Assembly: GCA_937129385.1 (NCBI GenBank) | Contig: CAKZNC010000100.1 | Span: forward strand, 12,349 to 76,348 | Reading direction: 5' to 3' | Source: an uncultured Bacteroidota bacterium | Lineage (GTDB): Bacteria; Bacteroidota; Bacteroidia; Bacteroidales; GCA-2748055 | DNA: 64,000 nt | Part shown: positions 692 through 64,000 of the stretch, piece after piece | How the letters are laid out: every line of letters begins with the position of its first letter | Numbering within the stretch: position 1 is the first letter of the stretch | Program-made: the position numbers and the translations under genes | The notes under the pieces: generated by a model | Databases searched by the model: none | What the model saw: the letters and a program-made list of their open reading frames with translations, nothing else | What the model was told of the DNA's origin: nothing

Positions 692-2025
692 TAATTATTG
701 GCTATCATAGGTTTCCTGCCAATGCTGTAATATGAAAATCCATATTCATGCATTTCCTCAGGTTCGTATATATTCCTTCCATCAAATATAACCTTTTCTT
801 TCATGAGCTTCTCCATCATCCTGTAATTGGGGACCCTGAATTCAGCCCACTCTGTAACAATGACGAGTGCACTGGCATCAAGTACAGCTTCATGTCGGTC
901 CTTGGCATATGCGATTCGGTCTCCGAGTATCCTTTTCGCCTCATCAAAGGCGACGGGATCATAAGCGGTCACCCTTGCACCTGCCTTCAGCAGTGCATTG
1001 ATAATTACCAGTGATGGTGCTTCACGCATATCATCGGTTTCGGGCTTGAATGAAAGTCCCCAGACTGCAATATGCTTATCTTTCAGTGATCCGCCAAAGT
1101 GATCGATCACCTTCCGGCCCACAATGGTCTTTTGATGATCATTTGCATCTTCAACTGATTGCAATATCCTGAGCGGTGCAGCATATTCTTTGCCGGTGCG
1201 CACAAGTGCTTTCACATCTTTAGGAAAACATGACCCCCCGTATCCAGCGCCAGGATAGATGAATTTGTTCCCGATACGCGGATCCGATCCGATCCCTTTT
1301 CTGACCAGGTTTACATCGGCCCCAACCGCCTCGCACAGGTTGGCGATCTCATTCATGAAACTGATCTTTGTGGCCAGCATCGCATTGGCAGCATATTTTG
1401 TCATTTCAGCAGACCGGATATCCATGATGATCACCGGGTGACCGTTCAGCAGGAATGGTTTATACAACCGGTTGATGATCTTTTCTGCACGCTCTGAATC
1501 AGTCCCGACCACAATCCGATCGGGTTTAAGGAAATCGTTTACCGCAGCCCCCTCCTTTAAGAATTCGGGGTTGGATGCCACATCGAATTCGATCTTCGCA
1601 TCCCGGTTCTTCAATTCCTCTGAAATTGCGCTTCTCACCTTTTCCGATGTATTGATCGGCACCGTACTCTTGGTGATCACAACCAGGTATTCCTCCATGT
1701 GACGACCGATCTCCCTGGCAACTGACAATACATACTGGAGATCAGCACTTCCGTCCTCATCCGGAGGTGTGCCCACCGCGATGAATACTGCCTCGCAGTC
1801 CTGGATGCTCTCTTTAAGACTCGTGGAAAATGTAAGCCGCTTCTTTTCGAGATTGTTTTTTATTAGCCTCGTCAGGCCCGGTTCATAGATTGGCACTTCC
1901 CCGTTGCGTAAACGCTCAATCTTCTCTTCATCAATATCCACACAGGCAACCTGTATACCTGTTTCGGCAAAGCATGTTCCAGAAACCAATCCGACATAAC
2001 CTGTGCCTATAACTGCAATTTTCAT
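691..2025 (-). CDS. ugd: UDP-glucose 6-dehydrogenase
   Basis: 444-aa ORF with the NAD-binding N-terminus [16 protein letters not shown] and the catalytic [10 protein letters not shown] motif. Sits directly upstream of the UXS gene. Confidence 0.93.
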
Positions 2026-2235: not shown

Positions 2236-4434
2236 ATGAGTGAAAAGGAAAAAGACACTTTGAACGAAGAACAAAATTCTGCTCAGAGTGCTAATGAAAA
2301 CAACGAAAAAACCGGAAAAGAGGTAGCGGAAAACATGGAGGAAGTGGAAGCGAAGAAATCAGATGAGGTAAAAGAAGAAGCCCCGACTGCAGAAAATGCC
2401 CCTGAAGAGGCTGAAACCAAAAAAGAAGAAACTGCGAAGTCAGAACAGGCCGAAACTCCTGAAACTGCTGAAAAAGCAGATGATCCTGCTGAAAAGAAAA
2501 CAGATGAAACTGCCGAAGTGAAGGCAGAATCAAAAGAAGAAATTAAATCAGAACCCGCGGAAGCAAAAGCTGAAAAAAGCGAAACTCCTGAAGCCACTGC
2601 AGCAGAGCAAAAAACTGCCTATAATGCGGATGCTACTGAAGGTGATGCAGACTTTGACTGGGATACATTTGGTGCCGATGTTCTTGATGAAACTGTAGAA
2701 GACCAGGAGAAACTGGAGGAGTTGTACAGCAACACACTTTCAACAATTGCCGAGAATGAGGTGATTGACGGAAAAGTGATCTCCATGAACAAGCGGGAAG
2801 TCGTGATCAACATTGGTTACAAATCCGAAGGTGTTGTTTCTCTCAATGAGTTCCGCTATAATCCTGAATTAAAGGCGGGCGATACCGTTGAGGTGTATGT
2901 TGAGAGCCAGGAAGATAAGAAAGGACAGCTTGTGCTTTCCCATAAGAAAGCTCGTGCAATGAGGTCATGGGACCGTGTCAACCAGGCACTGGATCAGGAC
3001 GAAGTGATCAAAGGCTACATCAAGTGCCGTACAAAAGGAGGTATGATTGTGGATGTATTCGGTATTGAAGCGTTCCTTCCGGGTTCCCAGATCGACGTCA
3101 AGCCTATCCGCGACTATGATGCATATGTTGACAAGACCATGGAATTCAAGGTGGTGAAGATTAACCACGAATTCAAGAACGTCGTGGTATCACACAAAGC
3201 ACTGATAGAGGAAGAGCTCGAACAGCAGAAGAAAGAGATCATCGCTAAACTTGAAAAAGGCCAGGTACTTGAAGGTGCCGTCAAGAACATTACTTCATAC
3301 GGTGTATTTATCGATCTGGGTGGTGTTGACGGACTCATTCATATCACCGACCTTTCATGGGGACGAGTCAATCATCCTGAAGAGATCCTTTCACTTGATG
3401 AAAAACTCAACGTGGTGATCCTTGATTTCGATGATGATAAGAAACGTATTGCACTTGGTCTGAAACAACTTACCCCGCACCCATGGGATTCACTTGATGA
3501 AAACCTGAAAGTGGGTGACAAAGTGAAAGGAAAGGTTGTCGTTATGGCTGACTATGGAGCGTTTATAGAAATTGCTCCGGGCGTTGAAGGACTGATCCAC
3601 GTTTCAGAAATGAGCTGGTCACAGCACCTGAAGAGTGCCCAGGAATTTATGAAAGTTGGTGACGAAGTGGAAGCTGTCATCCTTACCCTGGACAGGGAAG
3701 AAAGAAAGATGTCGCTGGGCATCAAGCAACTGAAAGAAGATCCATGGGATGAAGTACAGGAAAAATTTGCTGTGGGTACGAAACATACAGCAAAAGTTCG
3801 TAACTTTACTAACTTCGGTGTGTTTGTTGAAATCGAAGAAGGCGTTGACGGCCTGATTCATATTTCAGATCTTTCATGGACGAAGAAAGTGAAACATCCG
3901 GCAGAATTTACTTCCATTGGAGCTGACATTGAGGTGGTTGTTCTGGAAATTGACATTGAAAACCGTCGATTGAGCCTTGGTCATAAACAGCTGGAAGAGA
4001 ATCCCTGGGATGTATTTGAATCAGTTTTTGAAGTTGATTCAATTCACGAAGGAACGATCGTTGAATTAATGGACAAGGGTGCAGTCGTTGCACTTCCCTA
4101 TGGTGTGGAAGGATTTGTTACTCCAAAACACCTTGTAAAGGAGGATGGATCATCTGCAAAACAGGACGAAAAATTATCTTTTAAGGTAATTGAGTTCAAT
4201 AAGTCGGCAAAAAAGATTATCTTGTCTCATAGCCGAATTCATGAAGATGAGAATAGACAGTCTTCAGGGAAGTCAGGAAAGTCAGAAAAGCAGTCTGCTG
4301 CTGCTGACACACGGAGAACGGCCAAGAAAATCAAGAGCAATCTTGAGAAAACAACGCTTGGTGACATTTCCGATCTTGCTGCACTGAAGAATGAAATGGA
4401 AGAGAATGAGAAGAATAAGGCTGGAAAAAAGTAA
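2236..4434 (+). CDS. rpsA: 30S ribosomal protein S1 with ~135-aa acidic N-terminal extension
   Basis: 732-aa ORF with six S1/OB repeats, e.g. GKVISMNKREVVINIGYKSEGVV, GAVKNITSYGVFIDLGGVDGLIHITDLSW, GKVVVMADYGAFIEIAPGVEGLIHVSEMSW and AKVRNFTNFGVFVEIEEGVDGLIHISDLSW. Confidence 0.93.
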   Translation: MSEKEKDTLNEEQNSAQSANENNEKTGKEVAENMEEVEAKKSDEVKEEAPTAENAPEEAETKKEETAKSEQAETPETAEKADDPAEKKTDETAEVKAESKEEIKSEPAEAKAEKSETPEATAAEQKTAYNADATEGDADFDWDTFGADVLDETVEDQEKLEELYSNTLSTIAENEVIDGKVISMNKREVVINIGYKSEGVVSLNEFRYNPELKAGDTVEVYVESQEDKKGQLVLSHKKARAMRSWDRVNQALDQDEVIKGYIKCRTKGGMIVDVFGIEAFLPGSQIDVKPIRDYDAYVDKTMEFKVVKINHEFKNVVVSHKALIEEELEQQKKEIIAKLEKGQVLEGAVKNITSYGVFIDLGGVDGLIHITDLSWGRVNHPEEILSLDEKLNVVILDFDDDKKRIALGLKQLTPHPWDSLDENLKVGDKVKGKVVVMADYGAFIEIAPGVEGLIHVSEMSWSQHLKSAQEFMKVGDEVEAVILTLDREERKMSLGIKQLKEDPWDEVQEKFAVGTKHTAKVRNFTNFGVFVEIEEGVDGLIHISDLSWTKKVKHPAEFTSIGADIEVVVLEIDIENRRLSLGHKQLEENPWDVFESVFEVDSIHEGTIVELMDKGAVVALPYGVEGFVTPKHLVKEDGSSAKQDEKLSFKVIEFNKSAKKIILSHSRIHEDENRQSSGKSGKSEKQSAAADTRRTAKKIKSNLEKTTLGDISDLAALKNEMEENEKNKAGKK

Positions 4435-58722: not shown

Positions 58723-59370
58723 TTATTTGGTTTTTGATATTTTGTGATAATATCTGCATAAATCCGTCAGACCACACTCTCTGCACCTGGGTTTCCGCGC
58801 CTGGCAAACATACCTTCCATGGAGGATCAGCCAGTGATGTGCCTTATGGACCAGGGATTCCGGAATATATCTTGTAAGTTGAAGTTCTGCATCAAGTGGT
58901 GACTTTGCCCGGCTGGTGAGTCCAATCCGCTCAGCTACCCTGAATACATGGGTGTCAACAGCCATGGCCGGCTTCCTGAAGGCAACAGAAAGAATGACAT
59001 TCGCAGTTTTCCGGCCTACACCCGGAAGTTTCTGCAATTCCTCCAGTGTGTCGGGCACCTGGCCATCAAAATCAGCAGTCAGCATCCTTGCCATGCCGAC
59101 AAGGTGCCTGGCTTTGTTGTTGGGGTATGAACAGCTCCTGATGTATTCAAAAACCTCACTGGGTTCATGTTTTGCCAGTACTTCGGCATCCGGAAATTTC
59201 TTAAAAAAGTCCTGGGTGATGATGTTGACCCTTTTATCAGTGCATTGTGCAGAAAGAATAACTGCAATGATCAATTCGTAAGGGTCGGTATAAGTCAATT
59301 CTGTCTCAGCAACAGGCATATGCTTTTCGAAGTATGCAATTACCCGTTCATATCGCGCAGCTTTTTTCAT
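58723..59370 (-). CDS. nth: Endonuclease III (DNA-(apurinic/apyrimidinic site) lyase)
   Basis: 215-aa ORF with the HhH-GPD motif (LPGVGRKTANVIL), the catalytic Lys/Asp context and the C-terminal 4Fe-4S cluster CQARKPRCRECGLTDLC. Confidence 0.93.
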   Translation of the reverse strand: MKKAARYERVIAYFEKHMPVAETELTYTDPYELIIAVILSAQCTDKRVNIITQDFFKKFPDAEVLAKHEPSEVFEYIRSCSYPNNKARHLVGMARMLTADFDGQVPDTLEELQKLPGVGRKTANVILSVAFRKPAMAVDTHVFRVAERIGLTSRAKSPLDAELQLTRYIPESLVHKAHHWLILHGRYVCQARKPRCRECGLTDLCRYYHKISKTK

Positions 59371-59557
59371 GGAATTTGGAAATCTTTCATTGAATCAGAC
59401 CCTAAAAATAGTTTATTTTTGATCAGCATTGAAAGACTGCTATTTAGATTTTCAAAGATCCGAGGGGTTAAAACTTGAAAATTTACTAAAATCGATCAGA
59501 TTCACTTATAATCTTTGTATTTATAAATAATTATAATTACGTTTACACGGCGAAATT

Positions 59558-59608
59558 ATGATGACAAATCCACGTGCATATTATTTCTATTTTTTTGATC
59601 TGCGATAG
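59558..59608 (+). CDS. Candidate aromatic-amino-acid leader peptide MMTNPRAYYFYFFDLR
   Basis: My own reading: ATG ATG ACA AAT CCA CGT GCA TAT TAT TTC TAT TTT TTT GAT CTG CGA TAG. Six consecutive Tyr/Phe codons lie 120 nt upstream of pheA. The ORF is too short to appear in the ORF track. Confidence 0.6.
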   Translation: MMTNPRAYYFYFFDLR

Positions 59609-59632
59609 TTGGTCGGGAGAATAGTATGGATG

Positions 59633-59664
59633 TACCCGGCGTATGCGTCGGGTATTTTTGTTTT
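59633..59664 (+). terminator. Attenuator terminator hairpin upstream of pheA
   Basis: TACCCGGCG-TATG-CGTCGGGTA forms a 9-bp stem with one G-U pair, followed by TTTTTGTTTT. The upstream segment GGTCGGG (59611..59617) can pair with the same 5' arm (CCCGGC) instead. Confidence 0.65.
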
Positions 59665-59728
59665 AGGGCATTTGTCAACGCATATTTCAGGAAATATTTG
59701 ATACCGCTAAGTGGAAAAAAAACAAATA

Positions 59729-60565
59729 ATGAAGCGAATTGCGATACAGGGAGGATACGGTGCATTTCATGAACTTGCAGCAATAAAATACTTCGGTGGC
59801 GAAGAGATTGAGATCCTGCCACGCGATACCTTCCGTGACCTGCTTTCCTCCTTGAAAGATCAGAAATCAGACTATGGTATCATGGCCATTGAGAATTCAC
59901 TGGCCGGCAGCATTCTTCCAAATTACAATCTTCTGAAAGACACGCCAATGCGTGTGATTGGAGAGGTGTACCTGCGGATTAAACAAAATCTCGTTGCACT
60001 GCCGGGTGTGGAGATCAGGGACATTACGGAGACCTTCTCACATCCAATGGCCATCCTGCAGTGCAAACATTTTTTTGAAAAATACCCGCATATCAGGTTG
60101 ATCGAGAGTGTGGATACTGCACTTAGTGCAAAAGAGATCTCCGAGAAAAAGATAGGCACTGCAGCGGCCATTGCCAGCAGGATCGCAGCGGAAAAGTACG
60201 GGTTGAATATTCTTGCTGAGGGAATTGAAACAAACAAAATGAACTATACAAGGTTTCTTATCTTGAAGGAGAATGGCGGAGAGATTGAAAAGAGTTTGGT
60301 AAACAAGGCATCTATTCATTTTGCGCTTGCACACCAGATCGGCTCACTTTCCAAGATACTTTCCATATTCTCTTTTCATGAGATCAACCTTGCGAAGATC
60401 CAGTCCATGCCGATTATGGGCAAGGACTGGGAATACCAGTTTTATGTAGACCTGGAGATCAATGATTTTGATATGTACCAGAAAGCACTGGAATCGATCA
60501 AACCCTTTACATCCGGACTGATGGTAATGGGAGAGTATATAAAAGGTGAAGTATATTTTGATTAA
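59729..60565 (+). CDS. pheA: Prephenate dehydratase
   Basis: MKRIAIQGGYGAFHELAA... with a PDT domain (TRFLIL motif) and a C-terminal ACT domain. I prefer the ATG at 59729 over the GTG at 59711. Confidence 0.9.
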   Translation: MKRIAIQGGYGAFHELAAIKYFGGEEIEILPRDTFRDLLSSLKDQKSDYGIMAIENSLAGSILPNYNLLKDTPMRVIGEVYLRIKQNLVALPGVEIRDITETFSHPMAILQCKHFFEKYPHIRLIESVDTALSAKEISEKKIGTAAAIASRIAAEKYGLNILAEGIETNKMNYTRFLILKENGGEIEKSLVNKASIHFALAHQIGSLSKILSIFSFHEINLAKIQSMPIMGKDWEYQFYVDLEINDFDMYQKALESIKPFTSGLMVMGEYIKGEVYFD

Positions 60566-60576
60566 ATTTTTAAAAA

Positions 60577-61662
60577 ATGGTTGTTGAAGTTGATTTAAAA
60601 CCCCTGTCCATTAAGGGGCTGAAAGGAAAAAGACCACTGATAATGGCGGGTCCGTGCAGCGCCGAATCCGAAGAGCAGGTTCTGATCACTGCACGGGAAA
60701 TTGCTGCACTTGGTGTTCCGGTTTACAGGGCCGGAATATGGAAACCAAGGACAAGGCCAAATGCTTTTGAAGGGGTCGGATCGGTAGGATTGCCCTGGTT
60801 GCAGGCAGTTAAAAAAGAGACAGGAATGCTGGTCTCCACGGAAGTTGCCAATGTGAAACATGTCTATGAAGCCCTCAAGTATGGGGTTGATATCCTTTGG
60901 ATTGGCGCGCGGACATCAGCGAATCCCTTTGCTGTGCAGGAGATTGCTGACAGCCTAAAGGGGGTGAAGATCCCTGTATTCGTAAAAAATCCGGTCAATC
61001 CGGATGTTGATCTTTGGATCGGGGCCATCGAGCGGATCAACCAGGCAGGGATTGAGGAGATCGCAGCAATTCACAGGGGGTTTTCAAGCTATGATAAGAC
61101 CATTTACAGGAATTCCCCTCACTGGCAGGTTCCAATTGAATTGAGGCGAAGGATACCTGAACTCCCGATCATTACAGATCCCAGTCACATTTGTGGCTCC
61201 AGGGAATTGATCTATGATATCAGTCAGAAAGCCATGGATCTCAACTTTGACGGTTTGATCATCGAAACCCATCATCAGCCAGACAAAGCCTGGAGTGATG
61301 CAAAACAGCAGTTAACGCCGGAAGGATTGGGCAAGGTGCTGGATCGCCTGATCATGCGTGATCCGGATATTGATGCCGAACTTATGCTTACCTTGGCAGA
61401 GCTTAGAGACAATATTGACAAACTGGACGACAAACTGATCAATCTTGTTGAACAGCGGATGAAAGTGGTGGAAAATATAGGTACATACAAGAAAGATAAC
61501 AATATCACCATTCTGCAAAACAAGCGATGGGATGACATGCTTCGAAGTCGACTGATACTGGGAGAACGTAAAGGATTGAGCGAGGATTTTATAAATAAGA
61601 TATTCAGTGCGATACACCAGGAATCCATTAACAAGCAAACCCGCATAATGAACGAAGATTAA
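60577..61662 (+). CDS. Bifunctional 3-deoxy-7-phosphoheptulonate (DAHP) synthase / chorismate mutase type II
   Basis: 361-aa ORF with a class I-beta DAHPS/KDO8PS-like barrel (IMAGPCSAES, KPRT, DPSH) and a C-terminal AroQ chorismate mutase helix (LRDNIDKLDDKLINLVEQRMKVV). Confidence 0.88.
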   Translation: MVVEVDLKPLSIKGLKGKRPLIMAGPCSAESEEQVLITAREIAALGVPVYRAGIWKPRTRPNAFEGVGSVGLPWLQAVKKETGMLVSTEVANVKHVYEALKYGVDILWIGARTSANPFAVQEIADSLKGVKIPVFVKNPVNPDVDLWIGAIERINQAGIEEIAAIHRGFSSYDKTIYRNSPHWQVPIELRRRIPELPIITDPSHICGSRELIYDISQKAMDLNFDGLIIETHHQPDKAWSDAKQQLTPEGLGKVLDRLIMRDPDIDAELMLTLAELRDNIDKLDDKLINLVEQRMKVVENIGTYKKDNNITILQNKRWDDMLRSRLILGERKGLSEDFINKIFSAIHQESINKQTRIMNED

Positions 61663-61667
61663 TACGG

Positions 61668-62696
61668 ATGCAGGAACTGACGCTACATATTGATGACCAT
61701 CGCACAAGTATTCTGATCGGAAGAAATCTGTTTCCGCAGCGGGATATAAAGGCCGAAGGTAAGGTGATCTATCTCGTCGATGTTAATGTTTACCAGCACC
61801 ATAAAGAAAAATTTGAAGGTTTGCAATTTATTCTGATCCCCAGCGGTGAGAAATATAAATGTCTTGCCTACGTGGAGGAGCTGATGCGAAAACTTGTCGA
61901 CCTGGAAGCCGACAGAACCTCATTCCTGGTTGGGGTCGGGGGTGGACTTGTCACCGACCTTGTTGGGTTTGTTGCATCCACATTTATGAGGGGGGTTGGT
62001 TTTGGCTTTATTTCCACAACCCTGCTTGGCCAGGTCGATGCAAGTATCGGGGGAAAGAACGGGGTGAACCTCGACGGATTCAAGAATATGATCGGTGTGA
62101 TCCGGCAACCCTCATTCGTTTGGTGTGACCTGACAATGATCGAGTCTCTCGACCAGGGAGAGTTGGTTTCCGGTTTTGCGGAAGTGATCAAGTATGGTGC
62201 GATAAGGGACAGGAAACTCTTTGATTTCCTTGAAGAGAATTACAGTTCAGTCCTTGACCGGAAAACAGAACTACTCGAAAGGATAGTGACCGATTCAGCT
62301 GCCATCAAGATCGATATTGTCGAATCGGATGTGACAGAATTGGGTGACCGGAAATTGCTTAACTTTGGACATACGCTGGGACATGCGATAGAAAAGTTAA
62401 CGGGAATCCTGCATGGTGAGGCGGTCGCGATCGGTATGGTCCTGGCAGCAGAACTGTCCGTAAAGCTGGGATATCTCGGGAGAGATGAAGCTGACAGGCT
62501 CAGAGGGGTGATCGAGGCATCAGGGCTCCCGGTGGAAACAGATCAGTCAATGGAGGCAATCTTCGAAACTCTGCTAAAAGATAAAAAAAGGTCGGGAATC
62601 CACCTGGGCATGATACTGTTGCATTCCCTCGGCGATGCTTTTGTACATAAAATCGAGCTCGAATCATTAAAGAAAGCCCTCTATGATCTGCATTAG
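61668..62696 (+). CDS. aroB: 3-dehydroquinate synthase
   Basis: 342-aa ORF with GVGGGLVTDLVGFVA, DASIGGKNGVN and metal ligands in the HTLGHAIE context. Confidence 0.9.
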   Translation: MQELTLHIDDHRTSILIGRNLFPQRDIKAEGKVIYLVDVNVYQHHKEKFEGLQFILIPSGEKYKCLAYVEELMRKLVDLEADRTSFLVGVGGGLVTDLVGFVASTFMRGVGFGFISTTLLGQVDASIGGKNGVNLDGFKNMIGVIRQPSFVWCDLTMIESLDQGELVSGFAEVIKYGAIRDRKLFDFLEENYSSVLDRKTELLERIVTDSAAIKIDIVESDVTELGDRKLLNFGHTLGHAIEKLTGILHGEAVAIGMVLAAELSVKLGYLGRDEADRLRGVIEASGLPVETDQSMEAIFETLLKDKKRSGIHLGMILLHSLGDAFVHKIELESLKKALYDLH

Positions 62697-63318
62697 TATC
62701 GGCAATGAATCCATGATCAGGGAGGTGAATGCATTGAAACCTTCCCTGGTGGAGATCCGGTATGACCTGCTCAGGAGAGAGCCTGCGATGGTTGCCGGGG
62801 AACTTGACAGCGCGATATTGCAGGTAGCTACCTGTCGGCCAGGTATTTATCCAGAGGAAGAAAGGATGCAGATACTCAAAGATGCGGTGGTCAACGGAGC
62901 ACTCTACGTTGATATAGAGATCGAATCATCCGCAGACTACCTGGCAGAAATAGGAAGCATTGCGAAGGAGAAAAAAGTGCACCTGATCATATCGTATCAC
63001 AACTATAAGGAAACACCCTCTTCAGAAGAACTGAAAGAAATTCTGGCCACCTGCTACGAAAAGGGAGCTGATGTGGCCAAGATCGCTTGCCAGGTGAATG
63101 ATCGGGATGACAATGCACGACTCCTTTCCCTCTATTCAGAGCAGGGCAGGAAGGTGGTCATCGGCATGGGACAGATCGGCAGGGTCACAAGGTATGCAGC
63201 CATCGATCTGGGTGCTGAGTTTTCATTCGCCAGCATTGCTGATGATGCATCCACTGCTCCCGGACAGCTCACTTATCAGCAATTTCAATCCATACAAAAA
63301 ACGCTAAGAAACGCATGA
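62683..63318 (+). CDS. aroD: Type I 3-dehydroquinate dehydratase (short form)
   Basis: 211-aa ORF with LVEIRYDLL, the His context ISYHNY and the Schiff-base Lys context ADVAKIACQ. Overlaps aroB by 14 nt. Confidence 0.8.
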   Translation: MICISIGNESMIREVNALKPSLVEIRYDLLRREPAMVAGELDSAILQVATCRPGIYPEEERMQILKDAVVNGALYVDIEIESSADYLAEIGSIAKEKKVHLIISYHNYKETPSSEELKEILATCYEKGADVAKIACQVNDRDDNARLLSLYSEQGRKVVIGMGQIGRVTRYAAIDLGAEFSFASIADDASTAPGQLTYQQFQSIQKTLRNA

Positions 63319-64000
63319 ATTCATTCGGTCGGTTATTCAGGGTAAGTATATTCGGTGAATCCCACGGTCAGCTTGTCGGCGTGATCCTTGACGGGGTCCC
63401 TGCAGGTATAAGCATTTCGGAAGATGATCTCATGGCAGATCTTGCCCGGCGAAAAAGTGGTGCAGCAGGTACAACACCAAGGAAAGAGGACGATATACCA
63501 CACATCCGGTCAGGGGTTTTCAATGGTTTCACAACAGGCGCTCCGCTGGTTATACAGGTGGAGAATAAGAATACACGCTCAAGGGATTATACTGAATTAA
63601 GGAAGACTCCGCGGCCGGGACATGCAGATTTCACAGCCTTTAAAAAATTTGGAGGTTACGAAGATTACAGGGGAGGGGGGCATTTTTCGGGCCGGCTCAC
63701 CACAGGACTCGTTGCTGCTGGAGCAATTGCAAAGAAACTGATCAGTCCGGTTACCATGGAGACCTCGATCCTTGAGGTAGGCGGCAGCGAGGATATCCAG
63801 GCTGCCATTGACAAAGCGGTGGAAGAAAAAGATTCCATCGGAGGGATCATCGAATGCAGGATCAATGGATTGCCATCCGGGGTGGGCGAACCTTTTTTTG
63901 ATTCATTTGAAGCAGTGATCAGCCACATGGTCTTTTCCATCCCGGCAATCAAGGGAATTGAATTCGGATCAGGGTTTGCAGCAGCCAAAATGAAAGGCAG
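63315..64000 (+). CDS. aroC: Chorismate synthase, C-terminus cut by window edge
   Basis: My own translation from the ATG at 63315 gives MNSFGRLFRVSIFGESHGQLVGVILDGVPAG...RPGHADFTAFKKFGGYEDYRGGGHFSGR... Has an ATGA overlap with aroD. Not in the ORF track because it has no stop in the window. Confidence 0.9.
   Translation, partial: MNSFGRLFRVSIFGESHGQLVGVILDGVPAGISISEDDLMADLARRKSGAAGTTPRKEDDIPHIRSGVFNGFTTGAPLVIQVENKNTRSRDYTELRKTPRPGHADFTAFKKFGGYEDYRGGGHFSGRLTTGLVAAGAIAKKLISPVTMETSILEVGGSEDIQAAIDKAVEEKDSIGGIIECRINGLPSGVGEPFFDSFEAVISHMVFSIPAIKGIEFGSGFAAAKMKG

Follow-up and report, generated by a model that had tools for sequence, protein, structure and literature searches.

A predicted Tyr/Phe-sensing transcription attenuator upstream of the pheA operon of an uncultured Bacteroidales bacterium

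In Escherichia coli, pheA is preceded by pheL, a Phe-rich leader open reading frame (ORF) of ~15 codons, together with 1:2, 2:3 and 3:4 hairpins and a terminator (PMC3082878). An element of the same kind is present in a 64-kb stretch of DNA from an uncultured Bacteroidales bacterium (hereafter the window), where it lies in the 358-nt gap upstream of pheA, and it is very probably a functional Tyr/Phe-sensing, ribosome-mediated transcription attenuator of the pheA operon. Despite the shared layout, the E. coli and window elements have no detectable sequence or structure homology (no Rfam match at E up to 10). In contrast to pheL, which bears Phe codons only, the window leader bears both Tyr and Phe codons. 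The E. coli attenuator controls pheA alone, whereas that of the window would also control the common shikimate pathway, and the window element further differs in having a Bacteroidetes promoter candidate and no Shine-Dalgarno sequence. Leaders that respond to more than one amino acid are known in E. coli: thrL senses Thr and Ile, and ilvL senses Leu, Val and Ile, with shortage of any one of these relieving termination. These leaders resemble that of the window in combining codons for at least two operon-dependent amino acids, but they serve other amino acids and another pathway, and have no homology to the window element.

Within the same phylum, a 'leader peptide attenuation element' has been described upstream of pheA-aspC3 in Flavobacterium psychrophilum (Guerin et al. 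2021, ISME Commun, PMC9723704, Table S7). Its 5' region was mapped, its readthrough was condition-dependent, and it is kept in Flavobacteriaceae and has no Rfam match (PMC9723704). An initial annotation of the window had stated that attenuators of this type were predicted in some Bacteroidetes, and this published, transcriptome-supported case bears out the statement. As in the window, the first gene is pheA, the leader carries mixed F/Y(/W) codons (MNTNNTFYSNNSFYFYWNIGRDCYMVI), and the layout is the same, with a G-rich segment 10 nt past the aromatic run whose pairing to the 5' arm of a CCC/GGG terminator has an energy of -12.2 kcal/mol. The two elements nevertheless belong to different orders (Flavobacteriales vs Bacteroidales) and precede different operons, pheA-aspC3 in the one case and pheA-DAHPS/CM-aroB-aroD-aroC in the other (DAHPS/CM, DAHP synthase-chorismate mutase). 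In addition, the F. psychrophilum leader is 27 codons long with segment 2 within the ORF, which is like some of the classes of relatives described below but unlike the class of the window. The F. psychrophilum leader has transcriptome support, in contrast to the predicted element of the window. Another leader-peptide attenuator of an aromatic amino-acid operon in Bacteroidetes, the Bacteroid-trp leader (RF01692), was found by comparative genomics (Weinberg et al. 2010, PMC2864571) and has been mapped upstream of trpE in F. psychrophilum (PMC9723704). In contrast to the window leader, it carries Trp codons and precedes the trp operon, and the window region had no match to its model.

An Rfam cmscan of positions 59300-59800 at E up to 10 returned no leader, T-box or riboswitch family, the Leu/phe leader (RF01743) included, and the whole window gave no Rfam match at gathering level. 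Since there was no Rfam match, the element would work like pheL but outside that family, the gamma-proteobacterial Phe_leader (RF01859). The one noteworthy match below threshold, to the yeast snoRNA snR39 on the minus strand (59393-59478; 28.5 bits vs a cut-off of 40, E = 0.0047), fell in the AT-rich DNA that separates nth from the leader promoter, and was taken as chance. Attenuators in Bacteroidetes/Chlorobi were reportedly predicted by Vitreschak et al. in 2004 (FEMS Microbiol Lett) and by Lopatovskaya et al. in 2010. Our full-text literature searches found no description of a pheA attenuator in Bacteroidales; Naville & Gautheret 2010 and Seliverstov 2005 mention neither Bacteroidetes nor pheA, and a Bacteroides thetaiotaomicron transcriptome paper mentions leader-like short ORFs in general terms only. 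What is new here is a predicted Bacteroidales pheA leader, uncatalogued in Rfam and conserved in all close relatives examined; the mechanism is already known from textbooks, and no new mechanism is revealed.

Leader ORF and alternative hairpins in the window

The leader ORF (59558-59608, plus strand) consists of 16 codons encoding MMTNPRAYYFYFFDLR and a TAG stop at 59606-59608 (ATG ATG ACA AAT CCA CGT GCA TAT TAT TTC TAT TTT TTT GAT CTG CGA TAG). Its putative regulatory codons, read from the sequence, are the six consecutive aromatic codons TAT TAT TTC TAT TTT TTT (Y Y F Y F F) at 59579-59596 of the plus strand. This was the sole run of at least 5 consecutive F/Y/W codons across all six frames of the 64-kb window, and a window-wide search for amino-acid-run leader ORFs before terminators found none besides the pheA leader. 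In 500 kb of related loci, the 700 nt preceding pheA contained 82 sense-strand aromatic runs of at least 5 codons, while 23 were found elsewhere in the same 500 kb, counting six frames. Chance in AT-rich DNA does not account for the aromatic run.

The leader ORF is followed by a terminator hairpin, GTACCCGGCG-TATG-CGTCGGGTAT, at 59632-59655, with a T-run extending to 59664; folded alone, the hairpin had an energy of -15.3 kcal/mol. A consensus terminator scan likewise called this hairpin (10 pairs, 6 G-C, a 4-nt loop and the T-run), and the T-run lies behind it on the plus strand only. Its 5' arm is segment 3 (59632-59641, plus strand), which includes the antiterminator partner CCCGGC at 59635-59640, and its 3' arm is segment 4 (CGTCGGGTAT, 59646-59655, plus strand), supported by both folding and covariation. 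The T-run itself (TTTTTGTTTT, 59655-59664, plus strand), identified in the sequence and by the consensus scan, is the expected 3' end of the attenuated transcript. The competing strand is segment 2 (59611-59624, plus strand), whose core, GUCGGG at 59612-59617, forms the antiterminator 5' strand as judged from folds and covariation; the core begins 15 nt downstream of the last aromatic codon and 3 nt downstream of the stop. Pairing of 59612-17 with 59635-40 gives the nascent RNA a helix of 6 bp that includes one G-U pair and has an energy of -9.2 kcal/mol, and this antiterminator was the minimum-energy nascent fold at every possible aromatic-codon stall position. The 121-nt leader as a whole folded at -35.4 kcal/mol (z = -2.6 vs dinucleotide shuffles).

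The initial annotation had reported the 16-codon ORF and its six aromatic codons, GGTCGGG at 59611-59617, CCCGGC at 59635-59640, the 358-nt gap, and a terminator written as TACCCGGCG-TATG-CGTCGGGTA at 59633-59654 followed by TTTTTGTTTT to 59664. All of these matched the sequence exactly, and the consensus scan agreed on the terminator. It had also called for the free energies of the two structures to be compared; folding yielded both, with the terminator lower at equilibrium. Our folds add to that account a further hairpin, the 1:2 'protector', which ties the aromatic codons to the antiterminator strand; the promoter candidate described below is a second addition. In the minimum-energy folds, segment 1 (59587-59600, plus strand), spanning the last aromatic codons and GAUC, pairs with 59611-59624 through 14 pairs at -15.1 to -15.5 kcal/mol (z = -4.5 vs shuffles).

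Conservation of the leader and its helices among relatives

Species-representative genomes were scanned with PheA, yielding 80 loci, all from Bacteroidales or Bacteroidota metagenome-assembled genomes; the window PheA is 66-89% identical to these 80 Bacteroidales homologues. Loci with at least ~250 nt of DNA upstream of pheA were regarded as usable, of which there were 77, and these together with the window make up the 78 leaders referred to below. Every usable related locus (77/77) possessed a Y/F-rich mini-ORF before pheA, examples of its peptide being MRTSFGTYYFYFFDLR, MARINSVYYFYFFTGR and MNAGLFAYFYFFFFWVHAGPGSL. Conservation was confined to the ATG, the aromatic run and the hairpin cores, the N- and C-termini of the peptide and the spacers being divergent. 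Within the aromatic runs, T occupied codon position 1 in 575 of 602 codons, 224 of 242 A's fell at position 2, and 165 of 184 C's fell at position 3. All four codons (TTT, TTC, TAT and TAC) were in use, and both Y and F were present in all 77 leaders. This codon periodicity, together with the synonymous variation, is as expected of selection on translated codons, and a U-rich RNA motif alone would not give such a pattern. Trp codons were found beside the Y/F run in 17 of the 77 leaders (e.g. FWYFFYFYFF and FFFFW), among them L022, L026, L030, L042, L044-L046, L053 and L059, which suggests that some of these relatives may sense all three aromatic amino acids.

The most regular feature of the leaders was the spacing between the last aromatic codon and the base at which segment 2 begins to pair, with a median of 14 nt (interquartile range 13-15, 76 loci), compared with 15 nt in the window (59596-59612). 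Over 75-76 related loci, the position of the stop codon ranged from 29 nt ahead of the segment 2 start to 9 nt beyond it, and in some classes of relatives the antiterminator strand lies inside the leader ORF. A constant distance from the stall site despite a variable stop is what the ribosome-sensing model predicts. A covariance model (R1) built from 31 relatives, with the window left out, was searched against the window. Its single significant match (89.9 bits, E = 6e-14) occupies plus-strand positions 59558-59661, spans the full model length and begins at the leader ATG.

A terminator hairpin with a T-run followed the stop by 3-45 nt in 76 of the 78 leaders, the window included. Base pairs were counted in a MAFFT alignment of 75 loci that had been cut relative to the aromatic run rather than to the structure. 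For the terminator, 85% of cells were paired and 8 of 12 pairs displayed compensatory changes, with a covariation score of 0.358 vs 0.186 for shuffled alignments; 0 of 500 shuffles reached this value, and slid controls scored at most 0.116. For the antiterminator, 69.9% of cells were paired and compensatory changes were likewise found in 8 of 12 pairs, with a score of 0.204 vs 0.154 shuffled; again 0 of 500 shuffles reached it and slid controls were all lower. The weaker support for the antiterminator is due in part to the different directions in which the classes extend the helix from a fixed GGG/CCC core. The initial annotation had proposed aligning the upstream regions of relatives, and the relatives bore out its expectations: the F/Y run was kept in 77/77 and both stems showed compensatory changes in the alignment.

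The pairing of antiterminator strand and terminator arm could also be followed from class to class. Downstream of the aromatic run, the best upstream complement of the terminator 5' arm had a median z of -2.9 vs shuffles, and in 71% of loci no more than 5 of 200 shuffles were as good. Strand/arm pairs include GUCGGG/CCCGGC, ACCGGGAU/AUCCCGGU, GGGGCUUU/AAAGUCCC, GCCCGGG/CCCGGGC and CCGGGAU..CCU/AAGGUCCCGG, and cognate pairs were 2.6 kcal/mol better than pairs across classes. Within the sequence class of the window, the antiterminator core was invariant while its flanks diverged. The view that GGTCGGG and the terminator 3' arm are near-duplicates competing for one arm, first expressed for the window, held in every sequence class.

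Several loci departed from the arrangement seen in the window. Two full units of leader ORF plus terminator were arranged in series before pheA in ~17 of the 80 relatives (L011, L030, L031, L036, L044-L047, L050, L053, L056, L059, L063-L065, L067 and L073), while the window carries one unit. In L011 (~2700-3000), for example, directly after a window-class unit comes another leader, MYKLRDSYYYFYFYFWTEKDRG, which is served by a separate CCCGG/CCGGG terminator. The leader of L019 (2881-2986; MALVSYVHYPYFFTGR) is degenerate, its run being broken by His and Pro, while its hairpins are intact; its sensor may be weakened or decaying. A candidate second leader 1-1.8 kb upstream of pheA, the YYFYF stretch at 1176-1190 (minus strand) of L021, was rejected as a promoter-like AT-rich gap without a start codon; it lies on the strand opposite to pheA, between two conserved genes. 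Similar runs are found in L010, L038, L039, L048 and L066, and of these stretches only that of L021 was inspected.

Proposed switch and competing explanations

The proposed switch would tie expression of the operon to the availability of charged tRNA-Tyr and tRNA-Phe. Judging from the candidate promoter, transcription would start near 59550, and the leader would be translated at once. With Tyr and Phe plentiful, the ribosome would reach the UAG at 59606-59608 and its footprint would cover GUCGGG (59612-17), leaving segments 3 and 4 to pair, such that the terminator would form and polymerase would stop near 59660-64. With Tyr or Phe scarce, the ribosome would instead stall on the six Y/F codons, the 1:2 hairpin would melt and segment 2 would be exposed; once CCCGGC (59635-40) was made, segment 2 would pair with it, pre-empting the terminator arm and permitting readthrough into pheA. 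Given the size generally known for a ribosome footprint, a ribosome on the last Phe codon would end short of segment 2, 15 nt away. In the event of no translation, the 1:2 hairpin (-15 kcal/mol) would hold segment 2, making termination the default. The mixture of Tyr and Phe codons suits an operon from which both branches draw chorismate and prephenate. Our analysis covered sequence elements, predicted energies, conservation, covariation and spacing, from which we infer leader translation, the actual 3' ends and the response to Tyr/Phe. Taken together, the mini-ORF, terminator, antiterminator and spacing support the classical attenuation proposed when the window was first annotated, and its main features are conserved in relatives.

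Several observations weigh against this interpretation. The promoter is a consensus match only, with a final letter A instead of G, and the leader of the window would have a 5' untranslated region (UTR) of ~8 nt without a Shine-Dalgarno sequence, so that efficient and prompt leader initiation has to be assumed. Likewise, the antiterminator is short, with 6 bp including the one G-U, and with segment 2 free the terminator was favored at equilibrium (-17.1 vs -10.5 kcal/mol). Since it loses at equilibrium, the antiterminator must act kinetically, forming before segment 4 is transcribed; the antiterminator of the E. coli trp leader attenuator acts kinetically as well. RNAalifold on the closest class recovered the terminator only, which is attributable to the invariance of the antiterminator core within that class, and for this reason covariation was sought across classes. 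Finally, the 1:2 hairpin was strong in the window and some close relatives but not family-wide (median z = -0.35), with 21 of 76 loci having half or more of segment 2 paired to the aromatic run, and that step of the classical scheme would therefore be optional here.

We considered four other explanations, which together command a small share of our belief. A factor acting in trans, whether an RNA-binding protein, an uncharged tRNA or a small molecule, might set the terminator/antiterminator switch, with the mini-ORF incidental. Two alternative hairpins by themselves would suit any antitermination mechanism, and an antiterminator this weak might need help. However, the ATG, the frame and the Y/F codons were kept in 77/77 loci, showing codon periodicity and synonymous changes even as the remainder of the peptide diverged, the 14-nt ruler counts from the aromatic codons, and no T-box, riboswitch or other Rfam model matched at E up to 10, making such a factor improbable. 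We regard it as no less improbable that the leader ORF acts other than through the terminator, by way of Rho-dependent polarity, mRNA stability, or translational coupling or reinitiation at pheA. Bacteroidota do without Shine-Dalgarno-led initiation, and reinitiation has been put forward as the way in which short upstream ORFs act (PMC4833913); yet 120 nt separate the leader stop from the pheA ATG, as compared with a Bacteroidetes reinitiation peak of 11-14 nt (PMC4833913), and a canonical, covarying hairpin and T-run come after nearly every leader.

The S. meliloti attenuated leader transcript rnTrpL and leader peptide peTrpL, both of which can act in trans (PMC6614838, PMC7298713), raise the further prospect that the unit is chiefly an independent small RNA or a functional aromatic-rich micropeptide, with any effect on pheA secondary. 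We consider this very unlikely, as the unit was always directly upstream of pheA on the same strand and the Y/F run was the only conserved part of the peptide; moreover, a role in trans would add to attenuation rather than replace it. Least credible of all is a chance ORF in T-rich DNA beside an ordinary constitutive terminator or insulator. F/Y codons do arise easily in AT-rich intergenic DNA, as the 23 runs elsewhere in the 500 kb of related loci attest, and the one stray run inspected (L021) lacked a start codon. On the other hand, the run of the window is the sole one in 64 kb and is conserved family-wide, the T-run of the hairpin is on the plus strand only, and, since the upstream gene nth is divergent, there is nothing there to terminate.

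If the Tyr/Phe-sensing attenuator operates as proposed, it would put the Phe branch, chorismate mutase and the whole common shikimate pathway under one Tyr/Phe switch. Regulation of amino-acid biosynthesis is poorly charted in Bacteroidota and leaders of this kind are unannotated; the ~77 leaders, in several structural classes and some in tandem, are enough for an annotation family model. We advance more tentatively, and with somewhat more doubt than conviction, the broader proposal that Bacteroidales possess a large family of dual-input attenuators (Tyr and Phe, sometimes Trp) that no RNA-family model matches. Its members would draw on a dozen or more interchangeable hairpin classes, all organized by a fixed CCC/GGG core and a fixed ~14-nt ruler, and about one fifth of them, being in tandem, would form a two-checkpoint switch. 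Such a family, if true, would allow the reach of the ribosome along mRNA, and the coupling of transcription to translation, to be read from sequence alone in a phylum whose translation starts independently of Shine-Dalgarno pairing. With the leader set, one can ask how ribosome and polymerase are coupled where Shine-Dalgarno initiation is absent, and whether the response is sharper with attenuators in tandem.

Promoter candidate and downstream operon

The promoter candidate was identified by its match to the -33/-7 consensus of Bacteroidetes promoters. Its -33 element, TTTG (59514-59517, plus strand), is 20 nt upstream of the -7 box, TACGTTTA (59538-59545, plus strand; consensus TAnnTTTG), which in turn is 12 nt before the leader ATG. 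Among the 78 loci, the full TTTG-N17-23-TAnnTTT[GA] pattern was present in 20, and 57 had a TAnnTTT[GA] box no more than 70 nt ahead of the leader ATG, at a modal distance of 18 nt. A promoter-like TTTG ... TAnnTTT(G/A) pair was conserved just upstream of the leader ATG in L001-L010; in these loci and the window, a transcript from the candidate promoter would have a 5' UTR of only ~5-12 nt, with the leader ORF lacking a Shine-Dalgarno sequence. Reading of the 73 nt between the terminator and pheA revealed no Bacteroidetes-type promoter. A sigma-70 promoter scan was uninformative for this phylum.

The gap that holds the element is bounded on its other side by nth (endonuclease III; 58723-59370, minus strand), which is divergent from pheA. 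The first gene under the proposed control is pheA (prephenate dehydratase; 59729-60565, plus strand), identified by NCBIfam NF008865 (E = 5e-56) at 189.8 bits, below the curated cut-off of 219 bits. It is followed by a DAHP synthase-chorismate mutase fusion (60577-61662, plus strand), in which NCBIfam matches assigned residues 16-258 to DAHP synthase and residues 272-356 to chorismate mutase, and by aroB (3-dehydroquinate synthase; 61668-62696, plus strand; TIGR01357, 330 bits, above cut-off). The next gene, aroD (type I 3-dehydroquinate dehydratase; 62683-63318, plus strand), overlaps the end of aroB and matched TIGR01093 (E = 8e-30) at 104.6 bits, below the curated cut-off of 139.3 bits. The last, aroC (chorismate synthase; 63315-64000, plus strand; TIGR00033, 247.8 bits, above cut-off), overlaps the aroD stop and continues past the window end. 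NCBIfam thus confirmed the gene identities given in the initial annotation (pheA, DAHPS/CM, aroB, aroD and aroC). The genes are tightly packed, with intergenic gaps of 11 and 5 nt and two overlapping pairs, and the terminator-like sites among them were weak and all within coding sequence. Together they make up the Phe branch and the common aromatic pathway, i.e. the synthesis of the amino acids that the leader is predicted to sense.

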